Assembly (NCBI GenBank): GCA_964394465.1
Contig: CAYMXS010000001.1
Coordinates: 33,484-97,483, forward strand
DNA: 64,000 nucleotides
Direction of reading: 5' to 3'
Source: an uncultured Thermoplasmata archaeon
GTDB taxonomy: Archaea > Thermoplasmatota > Thermoplasmata > Halarchaeoplasmatales > Halarchaeoplasmataceae
Shown: piece by piece, positions 7,894 through 59,997 of the stretch
How the letters are laid out: each line of letters begins with the position of its first letter
Numbering within the stretch: the stretch's first letter is position 1
Program-made: the position numbers and the translations under genes
Notes under the pieces: model-generated
What the model was told of the DNA's origin: nothing
What the model saw: the letters and a program-made list of their open reading frames with translations, nothing else
Databases searched by the model: none

Positions 7894-8044
7894 CCATTTT
7901 CCTCCTCTTCGAATCTACTCAATCGTGTAAGAATATAAATATTTACCCGTTCTCCATGATTTTCATAACCTGAGTAGATATGATAGACCCTCAACGGATG
8001 CATACCCTGGGCTTCATCGGAGTTCTATGCAGTAAAACGGACCG

Positions 8045-8404: not shown

Positions 8405-8438
8405 ATTATCATCTCTTTTTTCTATTTCATTTTTTATT

Positions 8439-8663: not shown

Positions 8664-8673
8664 GCTTCATCAC

Positions 8674-9420: not shown

Positions 9421-9539
9421 GGTTGACTCTTCTCTAAACAGAGTTCATCTTTTAAACTTCAAGGGTCTCGGAGTCATCCTGATTTTTGTTCCTCAAATCC
9501 TATTTTACAACCCACCATATATTTTATCTACCAAAAATC

Positions 9540-9558
9540 TTTCGGTTAACCAAAATTA
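9540..9558 (+). promoter_or_regulatory. Conserved motif TTTCGGTTAACCAAAATTA upstream of the nuoBCDI-like operon. It is near-palindromic around GGTTAACC.
   Basis: TTTcGGTTAACCaAAA is a 16-bp imperfect palindrome. It is flanked by direct ACCAAAA(A/T)T repeats at 9530-9538 and 9548-9556. It lies ~95-110 nt upstream of the start and upstream of TATA-like tgtataat (9573-9580). Confidence 0.4.
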
Positions 9559-9650
9559 CAAATAAACCCACCTGTATAATGAGGTTATATCTGTATGATC
9601 GATCAACTCAGCTATAAAAGCTTACACAATGCTGCAGGGAGACGGATAAC

Positions 9651-10076
9651 TTGAGTCATGACCCGAAGAAGATGAAGAAACTCATAAAGGCTATATGGAT
9701 ATTCAACTGGTTCAACTCGTGTGGGTTCGCTGAACTCATACCGGTCGTTGGTTCCCGATGGGATATGGAACGCTTCGGTATGAAGGTGGTGGGAACACCT
9801 CGACACGCGGACGTCCTGTTCATCGCTGGTTATCAGACCAAGAAATCGATAAAAAAAGCCCAGCGTGTGTACGAACAGATGGCCGAGCCCAAGGTCGTAC
9901 TGGCGTTAGGTTCATGCACCATGACCGGAGGCATGTACTGGGATTCCTACAACACCATAAAGGATCTGGAAGAGTATCTTCCGGTGACCATGTACATCCC
10001 TGGCTGTCCCCCGAGACCCGAAGCGGTCTTCGACGCCTGTGTGCAGATATTCGAACACGTGAAGGGGATGGAATAG
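9651..10076 (+). CDS. NuoB/FpoB/hydrogenase-small-subunit-like protein (complex I 20-kDa subunit family)
   Basis: 141 aa (TTG at 9651; first ATG at 9672). RHADVLFIAGYQTKK, GSCTMTGG and IPGCPP are the family motifs. The first cluster motif is SCGFAE, whereas CC or CxxC is expected, so one Cys ligand is missing. Confidence 0.8.
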   Translation: MSHDPKKMKKLIKAIWIFNWFNSCGFAELIPVVGSRWDMERFGMKVVGTPRHADVLFIAGYQTKKSIKKAQRVYEQMAEPKVVLALGSCTMTGGMYWDSYNTIKDLEEYLPVTMYIPGCPPRPEAVFDACVQIFEHVKGME

Positions 10077-24154: not shown

Positions 24155-24229
24155 GCTCCCGTAGTGTAGTCCGGCCAATCATTTTGGCCTCTCGAGCCAA
24201 AGTCCCGGGTTCGAATCCCGGCGGGAGCA
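24155..24229 (+). tRNA. tRNA-Glu (anticodon CUC)
   Basis: 75 nt: GCTCCCG-TA-GTGTAGTCCGGCCAATCAT-TTGGC-CTCTCGA-GCCAA-AGT-CCCGG-GTTCGAAT-CCGGG... folds as a cloverleaf. The acceptor stem pairs GCTCCCG with CGGGAGC, and discriminator A is at 24229. The D-arm GUGUAGUCCGGCCAAUCAU is the archaeal tRNA-Glu form. The 7-nt anticodon loop has U33 and G37. No CCA is encoded. Confidence 0.85.
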
Positions 24230-24332
24230 TTTTTATGCGACCAGAGGGTTTCGAACTTTAGTTCGTGAACAAAATTTTTTGGTTAATTTTGTGAGCGTTT
24301 GGAATCATGAGTGAAACGAATGATTCTGAACA

Positions 24333-24354
24333 GAATCCCGGCGGGAGCATTTTT
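24333..24354 (+). repeat. Exact 22-nt duplicate of the tRNA-Glu 3' end plus flank (GAATCCCGGCGGGAGCATTTTT), 120 nt downstream of the tRNA
   Basis: Identical to 24213-24234. A third, partial copy GCGGGAGCATTTA is at 24407-24419. Confidence 0.8.
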
Positions 24355-24520
24355 CGTTTTTTCTAAAAATGCGACCCAATGGAAAAATCTTCAGTGATTT
24401 TCTGACGCGGGAGCATTTACACATTTCTGAGCCAAGTGAAGAAATTGTAAAAAGGAGGAATCTGTGATTCCTACGCATTTTTCGTTTTTTCTAAAAATGC
24501 GACCTAGTGGAAAAATCTTC
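24348..24520 (+). repeat. Two direct copies of a 45-nt hairpin-containing unit CATTTTTCGTTTTTTCTAAAAATGCGACC(C/T)A(A/G)TGGAAAAATCTTC, at 24348-24392 and 24476-24520
   Basis: 43 of 45 nt are identical. Each copy has an 8-bp inverted repeat GCATTTTT/AAAAATGC around a 10-nt loop. A loop-less shorter version GCATTTTTATGCGACC directly follows the tRNA at 24227-24242. Confidence 0.8.
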
Positions 24521-24597
24521 TGTTTTCTTCCAGCTCAAGAAGAACTCTAACCGCCAAAAATACCGATTTGAACTAAAGTAAAAAGAAAAAAGGGTTT

Positions 24598-24744
24598 TTA
24601 CTCGCTGCTTTTTATCCTGTAGACTCCGGTGCCACAGTTGGGGCACTCGCCCTTAACGGCGGGTCTTCCGTTCTTCATCTCGGTCTCTTCTGGATTCTTG
24701 ATCTCTACCTTCTCTCTGCATTTAACACAGTATGCTTTAGTCAT
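24598..24744 (-). CDS. 48-aa zinc-ribbon protein (MTKAYCVKCREKVEIKNPEETEMKNGRPAVKGECPNCGTGVYRIKSSE), DUF5679-like
   Basis: Under 60 aa, so absent from the ORF track. I translated it by hand. CxxC...CxxC spacing is present. It resembles a widespread small archaeal protein of the form MAKAYCVKCK...NGRPA.KG.CP.CGTKV.R. Confidence 0.5.
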   Translation of the reverse strand: MTKAYCVKCREKVEIKNPEETEMKNGRPAVKGECPNCGTGVYRIKSSE

Positions 24745-24796
24745 GTTCTCACTCACGGGAGCATTAAAAGAGGAGTATTAAAGGTTTACTTCGTAA

Positions 24797-25146
24797 AGGT
24801 CAGGTGACCGAAGTAAGCCCCTTTCTGTTTTGCCGCAGTTCTACCCGCTAGACGACATTCACCTGCGCGTCCTACCTGCCGGTCGCGGAAAGCTCATCCC
24901 GGCGCGTTTGGACTTGCTCCAGTGAGGTAAGTGGCCGTTTCATCGTTCCCTTCAGTTCAGTGCTCGGTGGGTTGACTCACCCGCCTTGCGGCGGACTTCG
25001 CGCACCTCATAGCTCCCCGAAGGACGTGTCGTTTCTGCGCCCTGAAACCTGGACTCTCGCCCCACCGCCTTGCGACGGTCCACCTTTCCTGTGGAGAGGG
25101 GACTTTCCTCAGGATGATCCCGTCGGTCGTCCTCGGTCTCCTGACC
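24797..25146 (-). ncRNA. rnpB: RNase P RNA (archaeal type A-like)
   Basis: A GC-rich, ORF-poor ~350-nt segment. On the minus strand it contains GAGGAAAGTCC, the universal P4 5' strand, near the 5' end. AACAGAAAGGGGCTTAC, corresponding to the ACAGAANCCGGCUUA region, lies near the 3' end. There is also a GGGTGAGTCAACCCACC element. The 5' GGTCAGG pairs with the 3' CCTGACC as P1. Confidence 0.65.
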
Positions 25147-25244: not shown

Positions 25245-26072
25245 ATGAGGCGCACTCAAGAGATCCGCCTAAGAGAGGACAATTTAGAAGATATAGTTTG
25301 CTGCCCCGGTGGTGCGGAGGTGGAGGGCAAGGGCTTGAAGGGTGACCTTGACAAAACTGTAGAATGGCAGAGAGAGATGCTCGAGGAAGGGATGACCGGT
25401 TTTATATCCTACCTGGGAGACGAACCAAGAGGTTTTATAGAGTACATGCCGGCGGAGAAAGCGCCTTTTCCGATAGAGGGCCCTGAAGCCGCTGTCCTGA
25501 TGTGTTACCACTGGGTACGTTCAGGAAATGAAAAAGAGGAAAGTCATCTCGACCATGAAGAAAGACTGATAGAACTTGTCTTGGACGATGCCCGGGAAAG
25601 ATATGCCGGTATAGCTACCCTCGGATGGGATCATCCCGTACATTTTCCAACCGAGATGCTGCAGGACCTAGAGTTCGAGATGATCGATTCCGAAGAACAC
25701 CTCTCGGTAATGTGGCACGCCTTTGAAGAGGGGGCTGAAAAACCATCCTTGGTAGGACCGAGCTTCGAACCTAGAGATTTATCAGGGGAATCAAAACTAG
25801 CCGTTGACTCAGCCCACAGCAACCGGTGCCCATACAGTATAAACAACTCGAGAAAATTGAGGGATGTTTTAGAGGAGGTCGATAAACAACGTATAGAGCA
25901 TATAGAGCACGTTATAGATACGCATGAGGATGCCATAAAATACAGTGTTTCTCCGTGGAATTGGGAGTGGCTCTATCTCAATGGAGAAGATGTCCCGATG
26001 TTATTCACCAAGCCTGAAGAGTTGAAAGAGATAATAGAGAAGAGCCTAGAAGGTTTAGTCAGTGACCGGTAG
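25245..26072 (+). CDS. Hypothetical protein, 275 aa
   Basis: A long ORF with coding-like composition. No confident family assignment was possible. Confidence 0.4.
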   Translation: MRRTQEIRLREDNLEDIVCCPGGAEVEGKGLKGDLDKTVEWQREMLEEGMTGFISYLGDEPRGFIEYMPAEKAPFPIEGPEAAVLMCYHWVRSGNEKEESHLDHEERLIELVLDDARERYAGIATLGWDHPVHFPTEMLQDLEFEMIDSEEHLSVMWHAFEEGAEKPSLVGPSFEPRDLSGESKLAVDSAHSNRCPYSINNSRKLRDVLEEVDKQRIEHIEHVIDTHEDAIKYSVSPWNWEWLYLNGEDVPMLFTKPEELKEIIEKSLEGLVSDR

Positions 26073-26772
26073 GCGCTTCAACACCTTCGATAACCCATCG
26101 ACCGGAAGATGAATCGTAAAGGAACTTACCTTTGACCACGGCTGGATCGTCGTTCGTGATTGTGTAATCTTCACTGTAATCCCATCCCTTTATACTGCAG
26201 CTTAAGTAGTGATCGCCACCTTCTAGAGGTGATAGCTCGAATCTAGTGGTATTGTAATTACAGCTCAAATGGTGGACGTCGCCTCTAACTTTTACTTCCA
26301 TGTCTTCATACCACTCTGGATTTTCCAGTAGTGATGAGATAGGTGTGAAACTCGAATACGCTTTTTTAGTTATCTTCAGGTCCGAGATCCCGTTGACCTG
26401 GATGGTGTACTCCTCCTGGTACTCGCTCAACTGCCCAGTAACCAAGACCTCGGAACCGGACCTCAGTTTCTTCTTTTCCTCCAAAGGTAGGTTCTTGACC
26501 ACTTTGTCCTTAACCATCACATCTATGGAGGAAGTGGAGAACTGTTCTCTCAGCACTAAAAAGTAAGTGTCCTGATACTTATCTAACTCGGTTATGAATC
26601 CTCTAGTCTTGATGGATGTTCCCAGCATATTGGAGTCAATGTCAGATATCTCTATCTCTTTCGCGTCCTGCCGTGCGGTATAAACGTACAGAGAGGACGT
26701 TCCTATCAAAGAGACGACCACACATATCAGAAGTATCTTGTTCTTCTTGTTCTCACCCAATATATCCAGCAT
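26059..26772 (-). CDS. Membrane-anchored hypothetical protein (N-terminal TM helix plus a beta-rich extracytoplasmic domain)
   Basis: 237 aa. The TM helix is KILLICVVVSLIGTSSLYVY, followed by a soluble, probably OB/beta-sandwich-like domain. It ends 5 nt from orc1. Confidence 0.4.
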   Translation of the reverse strand: MLDILGENKKNKILLICVVVSLIGTSSLYVYTARQDAKEIEISDIDSNMLGTSIKTRGFITELDKYQDTYFLVLREQFSTSSIDVMVKDKVVKNLPLEEKKKLRSGSEVLVTGQLSEYQEEYTIQVNGISDLKITKKAYSSFTPISSLLENPEWYEDMEVKVRGDVHHLSCNYNTTRFELSPLEGGDHYLSCSIKGWDYSEDYTITNDDPAVVKGKFLYDSSSGRWVIEGVEAPTGH

Positions 26773-26777
26773 CTTAT

Positions 26778-27947
26778 CTATCCTATGAATTCAGTCAGTT
26801 TCTCCTCCAAGACCTCGGCGGGTATATCCGCCAGGGATACTTTGGTCGTTCTTCCAGAACCGTCCGATATCGTTTTGGTATCCAAGAGCCCTTCGTCGGC
26901 TAGAGTCTTGATATACTTCCAGAACTGTGTATGCCCCAGCTTCTTCTTCTCGTACTCCTCGCATATAATATTATACGTTTCTTCTATCTCCCCTGTCTGA
27001 GTATAGGACTGCTTCTTCAGTTTTCGAGTGGAAGCCAGAAGGATCAGTCTCTCCTGCTCGTTCAGTTTCTTCAATTTACGTTCCGTCATATAGGGGTCAA
27101 CTTCGGCCTTGGCCGATCTAACATCTTCTGGCTTTATCTGGTCCCGGCCGTCCATCTCTGCTATCAGTCCCGCTTTTTCTAAAAGTTCAATGCCGAACCT
27201 GGCGTCCCCTTTTCTTCCAGATATATCGGCTAGAAGAGACAGCTCGCTATCCTGGATGGCGCCCGGATAAAGAGCCATCTCTGCCCTCTGCTCCAGGATG
27301 GGATACATCTCTTCAGGATTGTATTTAGGAAACTTGATCCTGTTGCTCCTTTTAAAGGAACTCAGGGCGCTCTCATCCAGCAGTTCGAAGGCGTTCTTCT
27401 GTGAGATCAGGAACAGGGAAACGCTTCCCTGAGGTGCTACACCTTCCTCGTCGAATCTAGAGAGTAAGTAGATCAGTTCCGACCCTTCCTTCTGTATGAG
27501 GGCATCGGCTTCATCTAAAACTACGATAAGATGTGTGTTCCTCTCCTTTATCTTGCTGTCTAGGGTCTTCATCATCTCGTCCACGGAGAAGCCCCTGTCC
27601 GGAAAGCCCTTATCGAAGTGATGCACTATCTTCCACATGGCGGCGCTGTTGTTGTTCCTCCTTCGACAGTTCACCAAAACGTGGTCCAGGGCCTGTCCCT
27701 TCTCCTTTGCCCACTTCTTGAAGTCCATGCAGAAACGTTTGGCCGTTGCAGTCTTTCCTGTGCCTACGGGCCCGTGGAGGAAGACGTTCTGCGAGATCTC
27801 GGAATCCAGCACGCCCCTGTAGAGTCCGAACAGCTCGTTCATCTGCTCGTCCCGGTTTGGCAGTTCGTCTGGAACGTAATCGAATGACAGTTTCTTTCGA
27901 TTTTTTATGACTCGGCTAGCGCTGTCTCTAAAGCTCATCTTAACCAC
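26778..27947 (-). CDS. cdc6: Orc1/Cdc6 replication initiator (AAA+ plus a C-terminal winged helix)
   Basis: 389 aa. The N-terminal motif is YVPDELPNRDEQMNEL. LFLHGPVGTGKTA is Walker A and IVVLDEAD is Walker B. A C-terminal wH domain is present. Confidence 0.9.
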   Translation of the reverse strand: MVKMSFRDSASRVIKNRKKLSFDYVPDELPNRDEQMNELFGLYRGVLDSEISQNVFLHGPVGTGKTATAKRFCMDFKKWAKEKGQALDHVLVNCRRRNNNSAAMWKIVHHFDKGFPDRGFSVDEMMKTLDSKIKERNTHLIVVLDEADALIQKEGSELIYLLSRFDEEGVAPQGSVSLFLISQKNAFELLDESALSSFKRSNRIKFPKYNPEEMYPILEQRAEMALYPGAIQDSELSLLADISGRKGDARFGIELLEKAGLIAEMDGRDQIKPEDVRSAKAEVDPYMTERKLKKLNEQERLILLASTRKLKKQSYTQTGEIEETYNIICEEYEKKKLGHTQFWKYIKTLADEGLLDTKTISDGSGRTTKVSLADIPAEVLEEKLTEFIG

Positions 27948-27957
27948 TCCTATCGGC

Positions 27958-28947
27958 TCACTCTATATCTAACTTCGCCCCGCAGTTTTCGCAGGTCTCG
28001 GCCGTGATCGGATTGTGCTCTTTACACACAGGACATTCCTTCTTTTCTATATCCTTGTCCTCTTCGTTTTCTTCTTCTGATCCCTCCACCAGGACCGCTT
28101 CTTCTATCACAGCCTCCTCTTCTTCATCTATCGTTTTCTTATGGTATTCTTCTTCCTCTGCGTCCTCTCCTATCGGTACCACTCCATCCTTGATCTCTGC
28201 ATTCTGGGCTCTCCTGAGTATTCCCCCATACTCTACGGAACCTTCGACTTTTACATCCTCATCTAACCACACATCTCTTTCACATGTTATATCTTCGGTC
28301 CTGGATCCGCTTTTGATGTGTATCTTGTCCTCGCCCATGATCTCCTTTGCAAGAACGTTCTCTTCTAGGTGGACTTCCCCCCCCTCTATAGCGCCTTGGA
28401 CCTCACTTTTGGTCCCTATATTCACGATACCTTCCTCGCTGATCACCTCCCCTTCTATTTTCACCTCTTTCTGGATATCCACATCTCCTACAGCAGATAT
28501 CGAGCCCTTGATCACGTCCTTTCGTCCGATCTTTACATCTCTAGAGGATCTTATGTCTCCCTGTACGACCATGTTCTCGCTCAGTTCTATGTCGCCTTTG
28601 GAGGATATCACTGTTACATTTTTCACTTCAGTTTTTACCTTTTCGAGCAGTATCTCGTTCTCTTCGTTCAACTCCTCTATCTCCCCTTTCAGTTCCTTCT
28701 TTTCCCTTTCCAGCTTATTGATCGCTTCTGTCTGAGAGTTCTCTTCCTTGTTTCCTCCCCCTCTCCCTTCGAGGAGTTCTTCCTGCCTCTTTAAAAGCCT
28801 TCGATTCTCCTTCTCTAACTCATTTATTTTCTCTTTAAGCTCCTTCTTCTCCTCCTTCAGGCTCTTGACCTGTTTGAGGTAGCTTTTGATCTTATTCTGG
28901 ATGTATTCCTTCTTGTCCTCTTCAGTGTTTCCTTCCATCGATTCCAC
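27958..28947 (-). CDS. Coiled-coil protein with a bactofilin-like (polymer-forming beta-helical) central domain, an acidic tail and a C-terminal zinc ribbon
   Basis: 329 aa. Roughly 110 aa of K/E-rich heptads come first. Then V..G.I/V repeats follow, for example VISSKGDIELSENMVVQGDIRSSRDVKIG..VIKGSISAVGDVDIQKEVKIEGEV. The C-terminus has EEEE...CPVCKEH...CENCGAKL. It lies 10 nt upstream of orc1. Confidence 0.55.
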   Translation of the reverse strand: MESMEGNTEEDKKEYIQNKIKSYLKQVKSLKEEKKELKEKINELEKENRRLLKRQEELLEGRGGGNKEENSQTEAINKLEREKKELKGEIEELNEENEILLEKVKTEVKNVTVISSKGDIELSENMVVQGDIRSSRDVKIGRKDVIKGSISAVGDVDIQKEVKIEGEVISEEGIVNIGTKSEVQGAIEGGEVHLEENVLAKEIMGEDKIHIKSGSRTEDITCERDVWLDEDVKVEGSVEYGGILRRAQNAEIKDGVVPIGEDAEEEEYHKKTIDEEEEAVIEEAVLVEGSEEENEEDKDIEKKECPVCKEHNPITAETCENCGAKLDIE

Positions 28948-29010
28948 TCGGTTTCGCTGCTCTAATTATATCTCAAGCTATATAAGACTTTATAAGAATT
29001 ATCCAGTATC

Positions 29011-29640
29011 TCAACCGTTCTGGATATTCTCTATTATGCCCTCCATCCTTTCCACCTCGAGTATGCAGAAAAGGTCTCCCCGTTTGGACAACCTTTTGAT
29101 GTTCTTAGCCATGACCTCTTCGCGGTGCTCCTCCAGTTTCTGGAAACCCTTCAGTTTGTTTATCAGGTTGTCCCACTCCATGGCGAACTCTCTTGAGTTT
29201 TCGGCATCGATGCTTCTCTTACCCAGTCTTTTCTCCCTGAACGACTGCCTCAGCCACTGTACGCCGGTCACGTGGTCACAGTAGGCCATGGTGTAATGCT
29301 CCTCGTCCATGTCAACCCCTTCGATCTCCTTGTCGTTCTCCCTGCAGTATCTGAGGAAGAAAATGTAAGACGGAGGCGGTAGACTGACCTCGCCGAAACG
29401 CTCCAGATTTTCCGCGTAGATCCTCTCCGGAGTGCTCGGCTGTATGTCCACATCCTTCGAATCGTCGTCTAGAAGCTGTTTCAACCCGTCCAGTTCCTCT
29501 CCCGATATCGGTAAAGTGCCGACTTTAAAATCGTGGTCCAACTTTTCGAGTTTTGATTCCACCCTCTCGGCTTCGGAAGTCAGTCCTTTAACCACGCCCA
29601 TCAGAAAGACCCTGGAACCGTTCAAGTTCAACTCTTTCAA
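29011..29640 (-). CDS. Hypothetical protein, 209 aa
   Basis: A coding-like ORF. Its start overlaps the stop of the upstream regulator gene. No confident family was assigned. Confidence 0.4.
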   Translation of the reverse strand: MKELNLNGSRVFLMGVVKGLTSEAERVESKLEKLDHDFKVGTLPISGEELDGLKQLLDDDSKDVDIQPSTPERIYAENLERFGEVSLPPPSYIFFLRYCRENDKEIEGVDMDEEHYTMAYCDHVTGVQWLRQSFREKRLGKRSIDAENSREFAMEWDNLINKLKGFQKLEEHREEVMAKNIKRLSKRGDLFCILEVERMEGIIENIQNG

Positions 29641-29641
29641 T

Positions 29642-30601
29642 CTATTTTGCCTCCTTCCTTTCCATGAGTATCTTCACGATCTCCTCCCTGTCATCTATTT
29701 TCTTCAGCTCGTCCTTGTCTATCAACGGGATCCCCTCTATGTTTGTATGGATGTACCTCTTCCGTATGAATATGACCGACTCTTTTTCGGTTATATCTGA
29801 AAGGCTGGACACTACTTTAGCCTTCTTCTTTATGTTCTGGTTGTCCTCCGAGGTTATGCCGCTCAGCATTATCCTGTCCTCTGCGTCGTCTGCCGTCACG
29901 GCCTCGAAGGGACATCTCTGTGTTGGAACTATCCTGTAGCCCATGGACTGGAGACAGTCGAAGACCAACTTTTCCAAGCCGGAGAACCCGTCCAGGGATG
30001 CTGAAGGCTTTTCTTCTTCCTCCTCTTTATGTTCCAACGGATTCAATGGCAGTATCAGGTCCTCCCCCAGGAACTCTTCCAGTTCCACCGCGACTTCAAG
30101 GTCTGCTCCCATACCCTTCTCGTACTTCTGTATGGACTTTCTAGAGACCCCGGCCACATCGGCCAACTTACGGAGCGATATCTTCCTCTCCTTCCTCGCC
30201 TGCTTGAGCAGCTCCGAGTCCATCTGGACGTAGAAGCCTCCCGGTGCCGAAAACACGTAGGGAGGAACGCCCTCCAGCATCATGTCTTCCAGGGTCCCTA
30301 TGGACAGTAATGGTATGCCTCTCCTGGAGTAGACCACGCCTCTTTCAAGCTCCCTTCTCCCCCCGTACTTCGCTATGTATAGTGGTGAAGCGTCCAGCGT
30401 ATCACTCAGGACCTTCAGACCTCTCGTGTTCTCCTCTCTCGTGCTGTCTGCATTTAAAACGGCACGGATGATGATCAGGTCTTCGTCTTTCCTGGCTATC
30501 AGATCGAAGGCGATGCCGCTCTCCCGATACGTGTCCGTTGTATAGAACCCGGCCTTCGTCAGGATTTCCTGAGCTTCCTGTATCAACTTTAATCTGTGCA
30601 T
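29642..30601 (-). CDS. Archaeal transcriptional regulator with a central HTH_XRE domain (COG1395/K07728-like architecture)
   Basis: 319 aa. The central LKQARKERKISLRKLADVAGVSRKSIQKYEKG is a Cro/C1-type HTH, flanked by N- and C-terminal domains. Confidence 0.6.
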   Translation of the reverse strand: MHRLKLIQEAQEILTKAGFYTTDTYRESGIAFDLIARKDEDLIIIRAVLNADSTREENTRGLKVLSDTLDASPLYIAKYGGRRELERGVVYSRRGIPLLSIGTLEDMMLEGVPPYVFSAPGGFYVQMDSELLKQARKERKISLRKLADVAGVSRKSIQKYEKGMGADLEVAVELEEFLGEDLILPLNPLEHKEEEEEKPSASLDGFSGLEKLVFDCLQSMGYRIVPTQRCPFEAVTADDAEDRIMLSGITSEDNQNIKKKAKVVSSLSDITEKESVIFIRKRYIHTNIEGIPLIDKDELKKIDDREEIVKILMERKEAK

Positions 30602-36926: not shown

Positions 36927-39900
36927 ATGAAGCAATCCTCTAAAATTGTATCCCTCACGGTAGTGATGGCCCTAGTACTGCTTCTGGGAGCGGTATCTGG
37001 AGCCCAATGGACTCGATGGAATCAGGATCAACCTCAAGAGAATTCTAAGGAAGTTAATGACACACACCTGATGACGGAGGACGAAGTGGAACAGCTGAAG
37101 AAGAATGTAGGAATGTACCAGCCCGGAGAGAACTATAACGAGATAATCAACGGGCATGGAACTGGCTTAGCACCACCTTCTACAGAGGATTACAAGGAGA
37201 TGGAAGGCTCTGTAAAGGTGGTGGAACACGTGGACTCTAACGAGCCCTTATCCGGTTCGGTCGACTTGACCGAAGACCAGTACTTCCCGCCGATAGGGAA
37301 CCAGGGTTCTCAGGGTTCATGCGCATCCTGGTCTACCGCATATTATGCCAACACGTACATGCAGGCGAAGGCCAACGGATGGGACGTTTCTAGCGGAGGG
37401 GACGATCATTTGATGAGTCCTTCATGGGTCTACAACAAGGTGAACGGTGGGAGCGATGGTGGTTCAACCCTTGCGGACCCGATGGCCCTGGTAGAAACGG
37501 TCGGCAACGCTGATATGCAGACCATGCCCTACGACGATTCAGATCATATCTCTTGGGGAGACGAATCGGCTTGGCGGGACGCTCCGCAGCACAGGGCCCA
37601 AGATTATGAATCTACCAGTGTCAGCAACGTAGATGTGGTCAAGTCTTGGCTCTCAGATGGTTTCGTTGTCAGCATGGCCGTAGATGCGGATCAGTACAAC
37701 TTCGACGGTGACAACGTTCTCTCCTCACAGGAATACAATGCAGGCAGCCCGAATCACGCCAATACCGTCGTGGGATACGATGACAGCGTGAGTGATGACG
37801 GTGAAACCGGGGCCTTCAAGATAGCTAATTCTTGGGGTCAATCATGGGGTCCAAACGGTGATGGAACGTATTACATGACCTATGACTGTTTCCAGACCCT
37901 AGCCTACAGTTCGGCCTATCGTTATACCGGGTCATTGTACAACGGCACTACATATCCTCAGATGATAGGGGCAACGGAGTTGAGTTCCACCGGGCCAAGG
38001 GATGCAGAAGTCGAGCTTGGAGCGGGCGACCCAGACGATCCAAGCGATACTCACTCCCCACAGTGGGACGGCGGCTCCCACGACTTTCCGTCCTTCATGT
38101 GCTTCGACATGACCACTCTAGAAACCGATGATACTTATTCTCAGTACTACCTTCACATAGGCTCCGGTTCCGGCTCCAGCACTATCTCGTCCTTCCAGGT
38201 CGAGGCATACCCCACGGGATACACACCAGGAAACCCGGATAACACATCCGGTGAATCATCTGATACCCCGGCAGATACCCCCGCAACGGTAATTGTTGAC
38301 TTCCAGGGTGGCGGAGGAAACGACCCGCCGGATGCTGCGTTCACTTATTCCCCTGATACACCAGCCGTTGGTGAGACCGTACAGTTCACCGACCAATCCG
38401 AGGACCAGGACGGAGGTACCATAACCGATTGGTCCTGGAGCTTCGGTGACGGTTCCAGCAGTTCTTCTCAGGATCCGACCCATTCCTACAGTTCCGAGGG
38501 TACTTATACGGTAGAACTGAGCGTGACAGATGATGATGGGGCCACCGCCACGGCCTCCCAGACCATAGAAGTCACCAGCGATGGAGATGACGGCGGCGGT
38601 GGTGGTTCCTCTGAGATGGACGAAGATTATGAGGACGGAGCCTCGGGCTGGAGCACGCAAGGTCTCTGGCATCTGGTTTCTGACTCCGACCAGTATGGGG
38701 ACAGTCACAGCGGTTCCAATGCGATGTGGTATGGTAAAGACTCAACCGGAAACTACGATACCGGTTCGCAGACAACTGGTTCTCTGGTTTCGCCTTCGAT
38801 AGATCTAACTCAGGCTTCCCAAGCTCAATTGACCTTCTACCACTGGTACGAGACGGAGAGCTACGACGGTGAGTACGATAAGGTCATGGTTTCAGTCAAT
38901 GGGGACCAGGTTTACTATAGAGACTCGAGTGATCCCAATGTGGGCTCCGAAGGCAACTTCGTGCAGGAAACAGTAGATCTTTCCTCCTACGTAGGTCAGA
39001 CCATATCCGTCAGTTTCACCTTCGATTCCATGGACGGGACCTACAATGACTATCGTGGATGGTATGTCGATGATATAGCCGTGTCTTCAGATGACGGTGG
39101 CGGCGGTGGAGGAAACAACGCCCCAAGCGCTTCCTTCACTTATTCTCCGACCGATCCATCTCCGGGAGATTCGATCCAGTTCACCGATACATCTTCGGAC
39201 GGCGATGGAAGCATAAGTTCCTATTCATGGGACTTCGGTGACGGTTCCACGAGTTCATCTCAGAACCCCACTCACTCCTACGGCTCCGAAGGGACCTACA
39301 CGGTTTCATTGACCGTGACTGACAACGACGGGGCGACCGACACGGCCTCGCAGTCAATAGACGTGAGTTCCGGAGGCGGTGGCGGTTCCACCGTGATTGA
39401 CGATGATTTCGAAAATGGAGCCTCAGGCTGGAGCACTTCAGGTCTGTGGCATCTCGTTTCAGACTCCGACCAGTACGGCGATGCCAACAGCGGTTCCAAG
39501 GCGATGTGGTATGGCCAGGATTCTACTGGTAACTACGCTACGGGGTCCCGTACAACGGGGTCCTTGAGCAAATCTGTGGACCTGAGTGGAACCTCATCAG
39601 CTACCTTGAGCTTCTCTCACTGGTTCGAAACTGAGAATTACGACAATGGCCAGTATGATAAGGTCATAGTTACAGTGAACGGTAATCAGGTCTACTACAG
39701 AGATACGTCGGATTCCAACGTCGGTTCTGAGAACAACTTCGTGCAGGAAACCATAGACATATCATCCTATGCCGGTCAAACGGTGGATATCAAGTTCACC
39801 TTCGACTCCATGGACGACTACGACAACGACTACCGTGGCTGGTATGTGGATGATGTCAAGGTCACAGCGGACTCCGGTGGTGGAGGCGGTGGAAATAGTG

Positions 39901-40799
39901 CGCCTTCAGCATACTTCAGTTACTCCCCGTCGAATCCATCTTCAGGAGAAACGGTTCAGTTCACTGACTCGTCTTCGGACAGTGATGGAAGCATAAGTTC
40001 CTATTCATGGGACTTCGGTGACGGCTCAACGTCCTCACAGCAGGACCCCACACATTCATATGGGTCCGACGGTACCTACACCGTTACCCTAACTGTAACG
40101 GATAATGAAGGGGCTACCAGTTCGACTTCTAAGGATATCACGGTCGGAAGTGGGGGCGGCGGTTCAACCGTACTAGATGAAGACTTCGAAAATGGAGCGT
40201 CCAGCTGGAGCACTTCAGGTCTGTGGCATCTTGTTTCAGACTCCGACCAATATGGCGATGCCAACAGCGGTTCCAAGGCGATGTGGTACGGTCAGGATTC
40301 CACTGGAACTTATGATACCGGTTCACCGACGTCGGGTTCATTGAGTGCTTCCGTTGACCTGAGCGGTGCGTCACAGGCAGAACTTACTTTCCAGCATTGG
40401 TTCAAGACTGAAAGCTATGATGGTCAGTACGATAAGGTCATAGTTACGGTGAACGGAAACCAGGTCTACTACAGAGATACGTCGGATTCCAATGTTGGTT
40501 CCGAGAACAACTTCGTGCAGGAAACGATAGACATCTCATCCTATGCGGGTCAAACGGTGGATATCAAGTTCACCTTCGACTCAGTAGATGACTACAACAA
40601 CGGATACCGCGGCTGGTACGTGGACGATGTCAAGGTCACAACTGGTACCACCTCTCCGACGGCAGTAGAAAGCACTGATGACGGTAGCGCTCCTCTCCTC
40701 AGTATGAGCGAGCAATATACCTCTCTTGATGCCTTGGATCACATGAACGTTGATATCGAGATCGATACGGCAAGCTATTACCGTCGAAAACTCTTCTAA
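36927..40799 (+). CDS. Giant secreted multidomain protein 1: signal peptide, papain-like C1A cysteine protease, then three units of [PKD domain + 150-aa GLWH/RGWYVDD beta-sandwich-type module]
   Basis: 1290 aa. The N-terminal signal/TM is MKQSSKIVSLTVVMALVLLLGAVSGA. C1A catalytic residues are present: QGSQGSCASWSTAYY (Cys), HANTVVGYDD (His) and IANSWGQSWG (Asn). There are three PKD domains (WSFGDGSSSSSQDPTHSYSSEGTYTVELSVTDDDG and others). There are three modules of the form EDFENGASGWSTSGLWHLVSDSDQYGD..MWYGQDSTGNYDTGS..HWFETE.YD..YDKV.VTVNG.QVYYRD.SD.NVGSE.NFVQETIDISSY.GQTV.I.F.FDS.DDY.N.YRGWYVDDV. Confidence 0.85.
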   Translation: MKQSSKIVSLTVVMALVLLLGAVSGAQWTRWNQDQPQENSKEVNDTHLMTEDEVEQLKKNVGMYQPGENYNEIINGHGTGLAPPSTEDYKEMEGSVKVVEHVDSNEPLSGSVDLTEDQYFPPIGNQGSQGSCASWSTAYYANTYMQAKANGWDVSSGGDDHLMSPSWVYNKVNGGSDGGSTLADPMALVETVGNADMQTMPYDDSDHISWGDESAWRDAPQHRAQDYESTSVSNVDVVKSWLSDGFVVSMAVDADQYNFDGDNVLSSQEYNAGSPNHANTVVGYDDSVSDDGETGAFKIANSWGQSWGPNGDGTYYMTYDCFQTLAYSSAYRYTGSLYNGTTYPQMIGATELSSTGPRDAEVELGAGDPDDPSDTHSPQWDGGSHDFPSFMCFDMTTLETDDTYSQYYLHIGSGSGSSTISSFQVEAYPTGYTPGNPDNTSGESSDTPADTPATVIVDFQGGGGNDPPDAAFTYSPDTPAVGETVQFTDQSEDQDGGTITDWSWSFGDGSSSSSQDPTHSYSSEGTYTVELSVTDDDGATATASQTIEVTSDGDDGGGGGSSEMDEDYEDGASGWSTQGLWHLVSDSDQYGDSHSGSNAMWYGKDSTGNYDTGSQTTGSLVSPSIDLTQASQAQLTFYHWYETESYDGEYDKVMVSVNGDQVYYRDSSDPNVGSEGNFVQETVDLSSYVGQTISVSFTFDSMDGTYNDYRGWYVDDIAVSSDDGGGGGGNNAPSASFTYSPTDPSPGDSIQFTDTSSDGDGSISSYSWDFGDGSTSSSQNPTHSYGSEGTYTVSLTVTDNDGATDTASQSIDVSSGGGGGSTVIDDDFENGASGWSTSGLWHLVSDSDQYGDANSGSKAMWYGQDSTGNYATGSRTTGSLSKSVDLSGTSSATLSFSHWFETENYDNGQYDKVIVTVNGNQVYYRDTSDSNVGSENNFVQETIDISSYAGQTVDIKFTFDSMDDYDNDYRGWYVDDVKVTADSGGGGGGNSAPSAYFSYSPSNPSSGETVQFTDSSSDSDGSISSYSWDFGDGSTSSQQDPTHSYGSDGTYTVTLTVTDNEGATSSTSKDITVGSGGGGSTVLDEDFENGASSWSTSGLWHLVSDSDQYGDANSGSKAMWYGQDSTGTYDTGSPTSGSLSASVDLSGASQAELTFQHWFKTESYDGQYDKVIVTVNGNQVYYRDTSDSNVGSENNFVQETIDISSYAGQTVDIKFTFDSVDDYNNGYRGWYVDDVKVTTGTTSPTAVESTDDGSAPLLSMSEQYTSLDALDHMNVDIEIDTASYYRRKLF

Positions 40800-40973
40800 A
40801 AAAACCTTTAACCCTTGTTTTTACTTTTTTTAGTTCCTTAGCCTCCTCCGATTTTTCTCCTAGAATACAACTTCTTAGCGCTGATATTCTACCCTTTTGC
40901 CCCCCCCATATATGGGGGTACGCTTTATATACCATATTCCTTTTTCCATTTTTGTAGATAAAAGGTGTTCTAG

Positions 40974-43900
40974 ATGGAATGGACGAAGAAAAAGTTGATA
41001 ACTTCAAGTTTGATCTTGGCCGCTTTGCTAGTGTTGGGCTCTTTTTCCACTCCCGCACTGGACCTTATAAATGATTCGAACACGGATGATGCTGGGCTAT
41101 CTCAAGGGACGGTCGAGAGTGATGTAGAGACAGAGGAGGACACTAAGAGTGTTCCCTCCAGTTCAGACCTAGACTCTGACGGGTCTACCGCCGAAACTAC
41201 AGATGGATCCAAGTCTAAATCCACCACCAGCGGTGAAAGCGACAAGTTCTGCATAGAGATACACAAGATCGAGGAGTTGGATAATATGGATGCCGTTGGT
41301 TCGGCTGAGTGGTACTACGAACTGAAGGTATCCGACGATGGAGGCTCGACCTGGGAGGTTCGAGAGTCATCAAAACCTTTGGACGACAGTAAAGATACCA
41401 TGATCGTGGATAACGAGCATTTCTTCGACGTGACCAATGACAAGATACTGTTCCGGATGACCCTAAAAGATGAAGATTCCGCTCTAGACGACACCGCGGA
41501 CATATCAGAACGGCCGGACAAGGGCTGGTTCGACGACGACGGGAAAGTTTTCAAGGGCGTCTACTGGATGGAGAACCACACCGTGGGGGGAGACCGAACT
41601 GAAGAGAACGAGATACACTGGTTGAAGACCAGCGGTGAGTGGGATGATAGTGGAGACGATGAGGATACGAATCTGCTGTTCAACGTTTACGAGAAGGGCA
41701 GACCGGACATAAAAAGACCTATCTTTACGGTGCCGAAGATACAGGAGAAGGGGAAGAACATAGAGGTCACTGTCACCTCCAGCGAGGAACCCAATACCTG
41801 GAACGTCGAGCTCTTCACCCCTTCTAGATATCCAACAGATTTGGACATCGAGGATATAACCAAACTGAAAGACGATAGATGGAGATTGGAGTGTGAGATA
41901 CCGGGGTCCATGGAGTCTAGACTTTACGATCTGGTCGTCAGCAATGAGTTCGGATCAGACAGTGAGTACCACGCAGTACAGATAGTGGATGAGATAGACG
42001 ACGAGTTCAACTTCATCCATATGTCGGACTTACACGTGGGATACGATGAGGATTTCTATTCCATACCGAACGTGAAGCAGGCCATCAGAGAAGCTAATCT
42101 GATAAACCCAGACTTCGTTTTCATAACTGGAGATGTATGTGACAAGGTCATGGGATGGTACAAAGACCAGCATCCAGACCCCATAGATCAGGACAGGAGA
42201 ACCCTCCAGTTACTCCAGATGTTTGACGTCCCCATCTACGTGGGCAGCGGCAATCACGACTGGTCCTACGACGGCTATAACGACGAGAGGCAGAATATAG
42301 AGTCCTACAAGAGATGGATCAATCCTTATCTCAACTTCTCGTTCAACTACGGCGATCATCATTTCTCTTACATGGATACCAAAAGCTACGTTGGGTGGTT
42401 GAACCCGGACAGTCCCATGGGGATGGAGGGTATCGATTGGCTCAAGAACGATCTGGAGCAGAACATAGACAAGACCCAGCGTTTCGTTGGGTATCATCAT
42501 CCCGTGTATCCAGACAATTTCGATGACGAGAGTGTTAGGTCTGAATTGGCCCAAACGCTCATAGATTACAACGTATCCATGGCTTTGACCGGACACACCC
42601 ATATAGAGTCCATCCATGATGCCTACGGAAACGAGCAGACCGGAGAGATGGGAAACCCGGCCCAACCGATACATGCTACAGTCTCGGATATAGAGGGGGG
42701 CAACAATTACAGACTAGTAAGGGTCCAGGGAAACGATATAGCCGACTATACCTACGATGAAGATGGAGACGGCGAGAGGCCGGCGAACTCCAGTATACCA
42801 ACAGGTGAATTATCCGTCGAGTACACCCCATCCAACAGTGGTGATAACAGTAAGGTGGTAGCCACGATCGAGAACGGTCTCTACGAGTACTTTGAAGACG
42901 CCTCCATAAGCTTCAAGGTCCCTGACGACGGGAGCGATTACACCGTTGAGAACGGTACGGTAAGGAACATGAAAGATATCGGGGCCTATCTCAGATTCAA
43001 CGTTTTGACCGATGTCCCTGAAGATAACACTAAAAAAGTGACCATCAGACCGTCAAACTACCTGGAAGCTGATTTCACCTGGTCCCCGGACGATCCTACC
43101 GTGCAGGATACGGTCCAATTCGATCACAGCGGGAATAAAAACGATATAAGTTCGTTTTCGTGGGACTTCGGGGACGGTTCGACTTCAACTGAAACTTCGC
43201 CATCACATGGTTATTCATCACCTGGAACGTACACCGTAGAACTGACCGTGGAGGATGCGGACGGCAAAACAGACACATCGACCAAACAGATAACGGTCAG
43301 CCCTGAGGATGAAAACGTAAATAAACTGAACGAGGACTTCGAAGGGGACGTTGACTGGTCAACCAGTGGATTGTGGCATCTAACTACCGAGAACGACCAG
43401 TACGGCGATGCGAACAGCGGTTCCAATGCCATGTGGTACGGTCAGGATTCCACCGGAGATTACGATACAGGTTCACATACCACTGGTTCTCTTGTATCAC
43501 CTACTCTCGATCTTTCTGAAGCTTCCGAAGCGGAATTGACTTTTCAGCACTGGTTCGAGACGGAGAACTGTGACGACGGCCACTGGGATAAGGTCATAGT
43601 GAGAGTGAACGATCAGCAGGTCTATTACAGAGATACCACGGACGACAACATGGGCTCGGAAGATAATTTCGTAAGGGAGACGATAGACATCTCGGAATAC
43701 ACGGGCCAGACCATCGAGATCCAGTTCGTATTCGACTCGGTAGACGATTACGATAATGCCTACAGAGGATGGTACGTAGACGACGTGAAAGTCACAGCGG
43801 ACTCCGGCGGGGATGAGGACGATGACGGCGATGAAGACGATGAAGACTCTGGCTCGGTGGTAATCTCAGAGGTATACTACGACGTAGAAGGTACGGACTC

Positions 43901-44807
43901 AGACGGCGAGTACATCGAGATATACAACCAGGGCTCAGAAGCAGTGGATCTTTCTGGATGGACTATAGGAGACGATACCAGTGCCAACTACACCTTCGAA
44001 GACTCCCTTGCTATACCGGGACACAGTTATCTAACGGTCTGCAGGGACAAGGCTACCTTCGAAGACCGGTACAATAAAAGTCCGGACGCTTGGGACCTAG
44101 CCCTTTCACTGAACAACGGCGGGGATACACTTACACTGTACGATACAAACGGCCAGACAGTAGATAAGGTGGGCTGGGAACAGAACGGTTGGAGCAACCT
44201 TTCAGCCTCTACAGGAGAGGTCATAAGAAGGGAAGATACTTCTGAAGATACGGACACCGTTGAAGACTGGGTCGTGAGTCAACCGGACCCGCAGGTCTTG
44301 AGCGATGGGGAGTCCTCCACTGGAAAACTCTTAAGCGAGGACTTCGAAGGAGAGCATGACTGGTCGACCAGTGGATTGTGGCATAGTGTAACAGAAAACG
44401 ATCAATACGGTGACAGTCACAGCGGTTCTCATTCGATGTGGTACGGTCAGGATTCAAAAGGAAACTACGATACGGGTTCACGCACCAATGGAATTTTGAG
44501 TTCTCCCACGGTAGATCTATCGAGCGTTTCAGACGCTACGCTGAGATTTCGACACTGGTTCAGGACTGAAAGTCACGAAGATAGCTATGACCACTGTGAA
44601 GTGAAGGTGAACGGAGAGCAGGTATACTTCAGAGACACATCAGATGAGAATGTGGGTTCTGAAGACAACTTCGTCAAGGAAACGATCGATATATCGTCAT
44701 ATGCGGGACAAACGGTCCAAATAGAGTTCGTCTTTGATTCGGTAGACGATTATGACAACGGGTATAGAGGCTGGTACATAGACGACGTGGCAGTCACAAC
44801 AGGTTGA
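40974..44807 (+). CDS. Giant secreted multidomain protein 2: signal peptide, calcineurin-like metallophosphoesterase, PKD domain, GLWH module, lamin-tail domain (LTD), GLWH module
   Basis: 1277 aa. The N-terminal signal is MEWTKKKLITSSLILAALLVLGS. The metallophosphoesterase motifs are FIHMSDLHVG, FITGDVCD, GNHDW and GHTHIES. The PKD domain is FSWDFGDGSTSTETSPSHGYSSPGTYTVELTVEDADG. The LTD is VVISEVYYDVEGTDSDGEYIEIYNQGSEAVDLSGWTIGDD...GGDTLTLYDTNGQTVDKVGW. Two C-terminal modules both end in RGWY(V/I)DDV. Confidence 0.85.
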   Translation: MEWTKKKLITSSLILAALLVLGSFSTPALDLINDSNTDDAGLSQGTVESDVETEEDTKSVPSSSDLDSDGSTAETTDGSKSKSTTSGESDKFCIEIHKIEELDNMDAVGSAEWYYELKVSDDGGSTWEVRESSKPLDDSKDTMIVDNEHFFDVTNDKILFRMTLKDEDSALDDTADISERPDKGWFDDDGKVFKGVYWMENHTVGGDRTEENEIHWLKTSGEWDDSGDDEDTNLLFNVYEKGRPDIKRPIFTVPKIQEKGKNIEVTVTSSEEPNTWNVELFTPSRYPTDLDIEDITKLKDDRWRLECEIPGSMESRLYDLVVSNEFGSDSEYHAVQIVDEIDDEFNFIHMSDLHVGYDEDFYSIPNVKQAIREANLINPDFVFITGDVCDKVMGWYKDQHPDPIDQDRRTLQLLQMFDVPIYVGSGNHDWSYDGYNDERQNIESYKRWINPYLNFSFNYGDHHFSYMDTKSYVGWLNPDSPMGMEGIDWLKNDLEQNIDKTQRFVGYHHPVYPDNFDDESVRSELAQTLIDYNVSMALTGHTHIESIHDAYGNEQTGEMGNPAQPIHATVSDIEGGNNYRLVRVQGNDIADYTYDEDGDGERPANSSIPTGELSVEYTPSNSGDNSKVVATIENGLYEYFEDASISFKVPDDGSDYTVENGTVRNMKDIGAYLRFNVLTDVPEDNTKKVTIRPSNYLEADFTWSPDDPTVQDTVQFDHSGNKNDISSFSWDFGDGSTSTETSPSHGYSSPGTYTVELTVEDADGKTDTSTKQITVSPEDENVNKLNEDFEGDVDWSTSGLWHLTTENDQYGDANSGSNAMWYGQDSTGDYDTGSHTTGSLVSPTLDLSEASEAELTFQHWFETENCDDGHWDKVIVRVNDQQVYYRDTTDDNMGSEDNFVRETIDISEYTGQTIEIQFVFDSVDDYDNAYRGWYVDDVKVTADSGGDEDDDGDEDDEDSGSVVISEVYYDVEGTDSDGEYIEIYNQGSEAVDLSGWTIGDDTSANYTFEDSLAIPGHSYLTVCRDKATFEDRYNKSPDAWDLALSLNNGGDTLTLYDTNGQTVDKVGWEQNGWSNLSASTGEVIRREDTSEDTDTVEDWVVSQPDPQVLSDGESSTGKLLSEDFEGEHDWSTSGLWHSVTENDQYGDSHSGSHSMWYGQDSKGNYDTGSRTNGILSSPTVDLSSVSDATLRFRHWFRTESHEDSYDHCEVKVNGEQVYFRDTSDENVGSEDNFVKETIDISSYAGQTVQIEFVFDSVDDYDNGYRGWYIDDVAVTTG

Positions 44808-44953
44808 ATCAAAATCAAAAAATTCTTTCTATCTTTTCCATCTAATATGCCCCTCTAGAAGCGCATATATGCGGCTGAGCGTTATATATCTACCAATACT
44901 TTTTTACCCCGATAAGAACCGAGGATACCCCCTCCTCGGAGAAGGGATCAACC

Positions 44954-59749: not shown

Positions 59750-59759
59750 GGTCGGACCA

Positions 59760-59996: not shown

Positions 59997-59997
59997 A

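Follow-up and report, generated by a model that had tools for sequence, protein, structure and literature searches.

The stretch analysed here (the window) comprises 64,000 nucleotides of contig CAYMXS010000001.1 from an uncultured archaeon of the halophilic order Ca. Halarchaeoplasmatales (Thermoplasmata). It carries a string of minus-strand genes in which orc1, encoding an Orc1/Cdc6 protein, lies between the genes for a bactofilin-like protein and for a membrane-anchored OB-fold protein with a transmembrane (TM) helix, referred to as OB-TM. The string was shown to be a vertically inherited chromosomal gene cluster of the order, and its conserved order hints at a connection of a cytoskeletal scaffold with replication or with the organisation of the chromosome. 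The closest Orc1 homologues are encoded by hypersaline metagenome-assembled genomes (MAGs) of Ca. Natronoplasma, Saliniplasma and Haladaptatiplasma, which are placed in the same order. A near-identical public locus occupies a 20,981-nt stretch of the 101-kb contig CAJOVN010000002.1 (MAG GCA_905333785.1), where 13 of 13 compared window proteins were 98-100% identical. The features of the string are listed below in the direction of transcription.

29642-30601, minus strand: COG1395/PRK04140 protein, 319 aa (NCBIfam NF003162)
29011-29640, minus strand: 209-aa protein with a TraB/ChaN/erythromycin-esterase-like fold and a degenerate motif
28964-28998, minus strand: TATA-box-like elements TTCTTATAAAG, TCTTATATAG and GATATAATTA in a 63-72-nt spacer, putative promoter
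27958-28938, minus strand: bactofilin-like protein, 326 aa from the ATG at 28938 or 329 aa from a GTG at 28947
28621-28923, minus strand: N-terminal coiled coil of the bactofilin-like protein, residues 6-106, two long helices
28174-28614, minus strand: right-handed beta-helix of the same protein, about eight windings, residues 109-255
28045-28173, minus strand: acidic, low-confidence linker of the same protein, residues 256-298, about half D/E
27961-28044, minus strand: C-terminal Zn ribbon of the same protein, CPVC-x11-CENC
26778-27938, minus strand: Orc1/Cdc6 AAA+ protein, 386 aa from the ATG at 27938 or 389 aa from a GTG at 27947
26059-26772, minus strand: membrane-anchored OB-fold (OB-TM) protein, 237 aa, with its ATG start 5 nt past the orc1 stop

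A scan of open reading frames (ORFs) recovered all those described in an earlier reading of the same DNA made from its letters alone (the original prediction). That reading had the COG1395 stop overlapping the next start; the stop is a TAG at 29644-29642 and is separated by 1 nt from the TTG start of the 209-aa gene. A GGAGG lies 9 nt upstream of this TTG, and the 209-aa gene is probably translationally coupled to the COG1395 gene. The spacer between the 209-aa and bactofilin-like genes measures 63-72 nt. From the bactofilin-like stop, orc1 begins after 10 nt at the GTG or after 19 nt at the ATG used in public gene calls, the ATG having an AGGAG 12 nt upstream.

Relatives were collected by a scan with one genome per species, yielding 80 loci with 10-kb flanks, 36 from the halophilic clade (Orc1 identity 55-73%; L008-L043) and 44 from Methanomassiliicoccales and other Thermoplasmata (Orc1 identity 47-51%; L044-L087). 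Gene order was assessed by tblastn of the window proteins and by ORF analysis, for which 34 halophilic loci had sufficient upstream sequence. In 26 of the 34, the COG1395 gene, the 209-aa gene, the bactofilin-like gene, orc1 and the OB-fold gene follow one another as in the window, so that the reservation of the original prediction, that the order might be conserved nowhere, did not hold. The bactofilin-like orthologues of these loci are 286-467 aa long and each has a terminal Zn ribbon. Six loci (L011, L013-L016 and L019) lack the bactofilin-like gene only, leaving a gap of 89-134 nt between the 209-aa gene and orc1. Locus L029 has a 150-aa remnant (9497-9946) that consists of the coiled coil and Zn ribbon with the whole beta-helix gone and still lies directly 5' of orc1, and in the rearranged locus L041 the three upstream genes are missing.

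In a neighbour-joining tree of Orc1 the six loci that lack the bactofilin-like gene group together as a single clade, which points to one loss, and the truncated and rearranged loci are each nested among intact ones; this gene arrangement was therefore present in the ancestor of the Halarchaeoplasmatales and has been disturbed three times. Where it is kept, the bactofilin-like gene is always within about 60 nt of orc1, and in 30 relatives the COG1395 gene is always two genes 5' of either the bactofilin-like gene or orc1. Across the halophilic clade, identity is 53-66% for the COG1395 protein and 52-64% for the 209-aa protein, with lower values for the bactofilin-like (26-38%) and OB-fold (30-43%) proteins.

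The string would fall into two transcription units, the first formed by the COG1395 and 209-aa genes and the second by the bactofilin-like gene, orc1 and the OB-fold gene. The window spacer 5' of the bactofilin-like gene contains TATA-like boxes, AAATCTTAAATAATG or GATAAATATTAAATA is conserved at the equivalent spacer position in relatives, and in the six species without the bactofilin-like gene GCGTCATCGTTTTATAT stands directly 5' of orc1. Because a conserved TATA-like box thus stands ahead of the bactofilin-like gene and, in species lacking it, ahead of orc1, co-transcription of the three genes is supported, and the element is a putative promoter of the second unit. In locus L042 an insertion of 1.36 kb (7602-8961), with a 398-aa ORF on the opposite strand inside it, lies between the 209-aa (TraB-like) and bactofilin-like genes, showing that the cluster can be split into its two halves. 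The original prediction had considered co-transcription of orc1 with the bactofilin-like gene; this is plausible, given their 10-19-nt gap and the TATA-like box ahead of them. The COG1395 and 209-aa pair is, in the light of the L042 insertion, probably a separate unit.

The bactofilin-like protein was modelled with AlphaFold2 (AF2) at a mean predicted local distance difference test score (pLDDT) of 83, with helices at residues 6-58 and 66-106 and a pLDDT above 90 for the beta-helix at 109-255. This helix is right-handed and three-faced, and the full domains of BacA and TtBac superpose on it at 1.8-2.8 Å. In the acidic stretch that follows, 23 of 45 residues are D or E, and the Zn ribbon (pLDDT about 87) gave weak matches to DZR and Zn_Ribbon_1. 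An alignment of 29 orthologues showed the four ribbon cysteines to be invariant, the turn glycines to be conserved, the heptad-rich K/E/L coiled coil to be kept and a motif at the end of the beta-helix (VEGSVEYxGxL...VxIxxSVLPR) to be conserved; linker length is highly variable and explains most of the span of sizes among the orthologues. The Pfam Bactofilin model (PF04519) matched 28 of the 29 at E<=0.01 (best E 6.8e-13), and the FapA/DUF342 model PF03961 also matched 13 of them (best E 8.9e-12). In place of the canonical bactofilin layout of about six windings with short disordered tails, the protein has about eight windings over 147 aa, a 100-aa coiled coil, a long linker and a Zn ribbon. 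From sequence and model it was concluded that this is a member of the bactofilin superfamily whose architecture is new and non-canonical; the Pfam matches of the orthologues and the AF2 model thus bear out the original description of a bactofilin-like beta-helix accompanied by a coiled coil, an acidic linker and a Zn ribbon.

A search for the wider family with the full-length protein returned two matches, candidates having been saturated by coiled-coil words, and an exhaustive HMMER search with residues 105-329 was made instead, which gave 88 representatives. Among sampled relatives of the beta-helix, large multi-repeat proteins apart, the combination of coiled coil and beta-helix is shared and the ends differ. 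Some carry a C-terminal Zn ribbon (P0002, P0142, P0148 and P0166), others a C-terminal helix-hairpin-helix (HhH) DNA-binding domain (P0124, P0125, P0128, P0131, P0132, P0134 and P0135) and others an N-terminal DUF835 domain (P0123, P0129, P0136, P0138, P0143, P0154 and P0169), a FlaC_arch domain being present as well in two of the last. DUF835 is regarded as a KaiC output domain that has been inactivated (PMC5847659). The DUF835 fusions P0123, which is encoded near ftsZ and che genes, and P0136 come from halophilic Thermoplasmata MAG series, and these genomes therefore hold paralogues of the bactofilin-like gene. In the HAP and JBKH MAG records such paralogues, with the order DUF835, coiled coil and bactofilin domain, were located at 6001-7644 of L093/L094, where ftsZ is 3-4 kb and cheX/cheD 4-5 kb away, and at 2029-3609 of L096. 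An HhH-type copy is present at 6001-7119 of L088, in a MAG from the same assembly project and sequencing run as the window, and a gene for a hexapeptide-repeat protein follows it.

On the other side of orc1, the OB-TM protein has a single conserved N-terminal TM helix at about residues 13-31 followed by one or more OB-fold domains, with weak matches to tRNA_anti-codon and tRNA_anti_2 (E=5.8e-11 for the L048 orthologue). Its gene lies 50 nt or less 3' of orc1 in 34 of 34 halophilic loci that extend far enough, making it the most stable partner of orc1. Among the 44 non-halophilic loci, a stand-alone DUF835 gene is found directly 3' of the orc1 orthologue in 14, the OB-TM gene follows the orc1-DUF835 pair in 7 of these 14, and in one further locus OB-TM comes directly after orc1.

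The Orc1 protein scored 282.6 bits against TIGR02928 (cutoff 181.3) and has a Cdc6_lid domain (E=2.7e-22), a Cdc6_C winged helix (E=3.1e-17) and intact Walker A (GPVGTGKT) and Walker B (VVLDEAD) motifs. The best sequence matches in the PDB were Sso Cdc6-1 (158.7 bits), Pae Cdc6 (148.6), Ape ORC1 (123), Ape ORC2 (95) and Sso Cdc6-3 (75). The original prediction held that this orc1 is not origin-adjacent, and for the window that description stands: the gene is flanked by gaps of 10-19 and 5 nt, no region resembling origin recognition boxes (ORBs) and no long AT-rich intergenic region abuts it, and the ORB consensus, sought both as a generic core and, with as many as 6 mismatches allowed, in the 22-nt form of the Methanomassiliicoccales, is not enriched. 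The consensus GTTCCAGTGGAAATGG-AGGGGT was absent within 10 kb in 80 of 80 loci, Methanomassiliicoccales included. Matches with up to 6 mismatches numbered 13 in the window and the 80 loci together (12 in the loci) against 9 in the shuffled 80 loci, the core TCCANTGGAAA was found in 2 of 96 loci only, and an unbiased repeat search found no conserved origin-like repeats in the intergenic DNA of relatives. The orc1 orthologue is likewise packed between genes in the 44 non-halophilic loci, where the largest measurable gap beside it is about 275 nt. Since the orthologue group is without ORBs within 10 kb in all 80 Thermoplasmata loci, the missing origin is a trait of this group across the Thermoplasmata and not a peculiarity of the locus, which qualifies the original prediction.

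The surroundings of the non-halophilic orthologues are also conserved. A protein of about 320 aa with a weak NIF3/DUF34 match is encoded directly 5' of orc1 in 32 of the 44 loci (for example L055 9045-10004 and L067 8970-9983), and in 25 of these 32 the match ends about 25 nt or less from the aligned orc1 start or overlaps it by a few bases. Two Methanomassiliicoccales loci (L072 and L097) have the order ftsZ, nusG, rpl11, rpl1, rpl10, (rpl12), NIF3-like gene and orc1, followed by gcvT in the complete genome and by an aldehyde dehydrogenase gene on the opposite strand in RumEn M1. In the window, ftsZ and a Spt5/NusG gene are found at 58628-60933, about 31 kb from orc1. Because the Methanomassiliicoccales carry both directly 5' of the ribosomal-protein, NIF3-like and orc1 string, this suggests that the linkage of ftsZ, nusG and orc1 is ancestral and was broken in the halophilic order.

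What such an Orc1 does may be read in more than one way. It is a serious possibility, if one held at somewhat less than even, that the protein is a second, ORB-less paralogue, placed much as Cdc6.2 is in the Methanomassiliicoccales, and not the replication initiator, in which case the cluster would be a DNA-damage or cell-cycle regulon combining an Hjc-like nuclease-HTH protein (HTH, helix-turn-helix), an Orc1-type regulator and an OB-fold protein. The uniform lack of the ORB consensus around the group is what such a paralogue would lead one to expect. Methanomassiliicoccales have two cdc6 genes per genome with ORBs beside Cdc6.1 only (PMC4153887, PMC5011839), and Orc1-2 of the Sulfolobales, a DNA-damage response regulator (PMC6061795), provides a precedent; in the complete genome CP058896.1 the orthologue lies at about 995 kb of 1.82 Mb. 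However, 'core' Orc1 copies are recognised in the literature by their slow evolution and conserved synteny (PMC3914693), and the window Orc1 displays both, with 47-51% identity even to its Methanomassiliicoccales orthologues, while lacking the ORB or AT-rich region of an origin-adjacent copy. It also scores better against Orc1-1-class structures than against ORC2, and its Methanomassiliicoccales context is conserved, whereas Cdc6.2 of that group is described as fast-evolving and in a non-conserved context (PMC4153887). No second orc1 was found in the window or in any fetched locus, to which the search was limited. This reading concerns the role of Orc1 only and is compatible with either of the two explanations of the cluster that follow.

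The explanation favoured here, at a level approaching an even chance, is that the bactofilin-like, Orc1 and OB-TM proteins are co-transcribed and act together, placing Orc1 or its DNA at a scaffold or membrane site. The bactofilin-like protein would dimerise through its coiled coil of about 100 residues and oligomerise through the ends of its beta-helix of about eight turns, and the Zn ribbon, carried on a flexible acidic tether, would serve as a module that binds DNA or Orc1. With the OB-TM protein in the membrane as its companion, it could hold Orc1, or Orc1-bound DNA, at a defined position, functionally resembling the bacterial bactofilin or polar scaffolds that organise chromosome-associated machinery. 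The C-terminal module may be regarded as a binding hook because in the closest relatives of the beta-helix the C-terminus is likewise taken by a Zn ribbon or by an HhH domain, or the N-terminus by DUF835. Joint function is lifted above plain adjacency by three independent observations, namely the DUF835-orc1 adjacency, the fusion of DUF835 to the beta-helix family and the HhH domain at the position of the Zn ribbon. Further support comes from the conservation of the gene order in 26 of 34 species, from the tight spacing and TATA-like box of the second unit, and from the truncated copy of L029, in which the coiled coil and Zn ribbon are retained beside orc1; the Myxococcus bactofilin filaments provide a precedent.

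Several observations weigh against such a role. The functional coupling is read wholly from gene neighbourhood in one uncultured order, and interaction, DNA binding, polymerisation and a shared transcript are all predictions. Six sampled relatives of the beta-helix elsewhere in genomes (P0128, P0166, P0142, P0148, P0123 and P0136) showed no adjacency to orc1. A whole subclade has lost the bactofilin-like gene yet keeps orc1 and the OB-TM gene, and where the protein is present it evolves fast, its 26-38% identity comparing with 55-73% for Orc1. The window protein itself scored 26.1 bits (E=1e-5) against PF04519, just under the gathering score of 27.9. The coiled coil, placed at the N-terminal end of the beta-helix, may block the head-to-head contact of canonical bactofilins, and the positive-inside rule would allow an extracellular position for the OB-fold domain.

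Much of this would be expected if the bactofilin-like gene were a passenger, that is, a general cytoskeletal or cell-shape gene that the ancestor of the order had acquired between orc1 and its promoter, with no direct role in replication or the chromosome. It would then stay in place through operon inertia or a convenient growth-linked expression, and the halofilins of Haloferax would be the appropriate comparison. This explanation, itself tentative, was ranked nearly as likely as joint action at a scaffold. The family members unlinked to orc1 fit it, as do the clean loss in one subclade, which left the promoter directly before orc1, and the fast divergence with highly variable linker length; a role in cell shape is also what has been described to date for characterised archaeal bactofilins (PMC11459167). 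A mere passenger is harder to reconcile with the retention of the gene in 26 of 34 species over a deep divergence (Orc1 identity down to 55%), always about 60 nt or less from orc1, or with a truncated copy that still keeps the coiled coil and the Zn ribbon. The independent links of DUF835 to the orc1 group and to the beta-helix family also count against it, and the C-terminal HhH domains of close relatives point to DNA binding.

A cryptic origin on the far side of the cluster is improbable. The candidate is an AT-rich spacer of 370 nt at 24230-24600, 2.2 kb beyond the 3' end of orc1, which is the sole repeat-bearing AT-rich spacer in the 64 kb. The whole intergenic stretch between tRNA-Glu(CTC) and the DUF5679 gene (24213-24600) has a GC content of 35-39% against about 49% for the window, and contains two 56-nt direct repeats (24347-24402 and 24475-24530) that are 89% identical. 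Each repeat comprises a hairpin, GCATTTTT-N10-AAAAATGC, followed by GACCYARTGGAAAAATCTTC, and includes an ORB-half-like core, GACCYARTGGAAAAA; the 17-nt core occurs 2 times against 0.31 expected. These features would suit an origin, but there are just two copies, direct rather than inverted, and no G-string. The motif is absent from the other 86 loci and from viral contigs, a tRNA at this position is absent in the 13 relatives scanned, and Rfam matched the tRNA itself only. An exact 22-nt copy of the tRNA-Glu 3' end (24213-24234 repeated at 24333-24354) and a third GCGGGAGCATTT at 24407 lie in the spacer, which coincides with a break in synteny: relatives have rpa genes beyond this point. None is present in the 64-kb window, so that the genome has been rearranged at the tRNA-Glu spacer. 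The tRNA duplicates and the break fit recombination or attachment (att) scars better than an origin, and the spacer may consist of such scars or be a lineage-specific element.

The original prediction also raised the possibility of a relic of an integrated element; taken as a plasmid or virus that brought its own Orc1, this was rejected as very improbable. In its favour, archaeal mobile elements often carry Orc1 (PMC3914693), and a distance of 2.5 kb separates the cluster from a tRNA gene whose 3' end is duplicated. Against it, the order is common to 26 of 34 species, the Orc1 tree agrees with vertical descent, the protein evolves slowly enough to be 47-51% identical even to Methanomassiliicoccales orthologues, the gene string contains no integrase or other mobile-element gene, no Orc1 relatives occur among 2.9 million viral contigs, PADLOC returned no defence systems beyond generic AAA, coiled-coil or HTH noise, and no compositional break was seen.

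In about 22 halophilic relatives (L011-L041) a pair of genes for an RPA1-like and an RPA-associated OB-fold protein lies 6-9 kb 3' of orc1 on the opposite strand (approximately +5.8 to +9.3 kb), forming with orc1 a loose replication neighbourhood. At some 6.6 kb from orc1, the interval that separates the rpa1-like from the rpa2A-like gene holds 2-3 copies of tandem units of about 50 nt that contain AAGGAGGTTTTAAGATGAGCAGGATTA, a Shine-Dalgarno (SD) sequence with an ATG (L011 16604-16745, L014 16695-16785, L015 11643-11765, L016 12778-13079, L028 10259-10368 and L032 16659-16775). The units are spaced 42-155 nt from start to start, mostly about 50 or 92, and mimic the start of the downstream gene. 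They were considered as ORBs and rejected on account of their position between rpa genes and their SD and ATG; they may serve in the control of translation or have arisen by duplication of start regions.

The two genes of the first unit were characterised further. The COG1395 protein scored 299.7 bits against NF003162 (cutoff 263) with an HTH_3 match at E=7.7e-12, and its identical public gene is recorded with PDDEXK_19 and HTH_3. Members of COG1395/PRK04140 have an N-terminal PD-(D/E)XK domain resembling the Holliday-junction resolvase Hjc, a central Xre-type HTH and a C-terminal degenerate PD-(D/E)XK domain (PMC1189080). The 209-aa protein has a TraB/ChaN-like fold and gave no match in Pfam, TraB included, or in NCBIfam. 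TraB family proteins have an N-terminal GTxH-type motif. The 209-aa protein has an invariant VVKGL at the N-terminal strand-loop in its place, together with further invariant residues (DMD..H.T.A.C.H), which suggests that the active site is different or lost.

Upstream of the COG1395 gene and in the same direction are genes for a PHP phosphoesterase, a DUF447_N protein and a 143-aa hypothetical protein, followed by a divergent MarR gene. Just past a convergent 275-aa gene lie the archaeal RNase P RNA (24802-25142, 189 bits) and a 52-aa DUF5679 zinc-ribbon gene (24598-24756), the latter keeping its place with respect to orc1 in most relatives. At 36927-53488 the plus strand has three very large ORFs (1290, 1277 and 2844 aa); the public call of one has PKD and InhA-like MAM domains, and all three probably encode surface proteins.

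How the machinery of chromosomes and replication is placed in euryarchaea without SegAB- or ParAB-type systems is little known, and archaeal bactofilins have so far been tied to cell shape only. A broader proposal, speculative and on balance unlikely, is that an Orc1-type protein of the Thermoplasmata belongs to a membrane- and cytoskeleton-linked module with OB-TM as its widespread partner and an interchangeable adaptor, DUF835 in non-halophiles and the bactofilin-like Zn-ribbon protein in the Halarchaeoplasmatales. The fusions of DUF835, coiled coil and bactofilin domain would then act as a 'Rosetta stone' between the two adaptor types. If correct, this would be the first archaeal apparatus to tether an initiator, or its DNA, to a bactofilin-type scaffold, and a candidate euryarchaeal system for chromosome positioning or replication localisation. 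The three or four proteins involved (bactofilin-like, Orc1, OB-TM and DUF835) are a concrete set for interaction tests. Should the link amount to co-expression only, a family with a new bactofilin architecture would still have been described and a 'hypothetical' protein re-annotated as a degenerate TraB fold. A well-conserved Thermoplasmata Orc1 group that is never origin-adjacent also calls for caution in the use of orc1 as an origin marker when archaeal MAGs are rotated or annotated.

Compared with known systems, the window Orc1 resembles Cdc6.2 of the Methanomassiliicoccales and Orc1-2 of the Sulfolobales in having no ORB nearby, another copy being expected at the origin; it differs from both in that its group is slow-evolving, syntenic and nearer to Orc1-1-class structures than to ORC2. 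The 209-aa protein differs from the TraB/Tiki/ChaN/erythromycin-esterase superfamily in its VVKGL motif and in the missing Pfam TraB match. FapA/DUF342 proteins (PF03961), like the bactofilin-like protein, combine a beta-solenoid with a coiled coil. FapA proteins have a large N-terminal domain and their coiled coil comes after the solenoid, whereas in the window protein the coiled coil precedes the solenoid and a Zn ribbon stands at the end.

The canonical bactofilins, Caulobacter BacA and Thermus TtBac, share with the window protein the right-handed, three-faced beta-helix and conserved turn glycines. They are bacterial and have about six windings with a short tail or membrane-targeting sequence, in contrast to the approximately eight windings, coiled coil, linker and ribbon of the archaeal protein. 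In Myxococcus, the BacNOP scaffold organises chromosome-segregation proteins and has ParAB as its genomic partner; for the window protein the partner is Orc1 and the scaffold role is a proposal. BacNOP reportedly has a PadC-ParAB connection. As summarised in bioRxiv 10.1101/617639, Myxococcus bactofilin filaments aid chromosome segregation.

An archaeal parallel is provided by the halofilins HalA and HalB of Haloferax volcanii (PMC11459167), which are likewise bactofilin-superfamily proteins of a halophile, divergent from PF04519 and recognised by profile or structure methods. HalA consists of two head-to-head bactofilin subdomains joined by an alpha-hairpin, and HalB of a five-TM domain with an extracellular bactofilin domain (PMC11459167), whereas the window protein has a single beta-helix and, in the AF2 model, no TM segment. 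The halofilins act in cell-shape transitions with no reported link to replication genes (PMC11459167); the bactofilin-like protein of the Halarchaeoplasmatales, in contrast, has orc1 as its neighbour.

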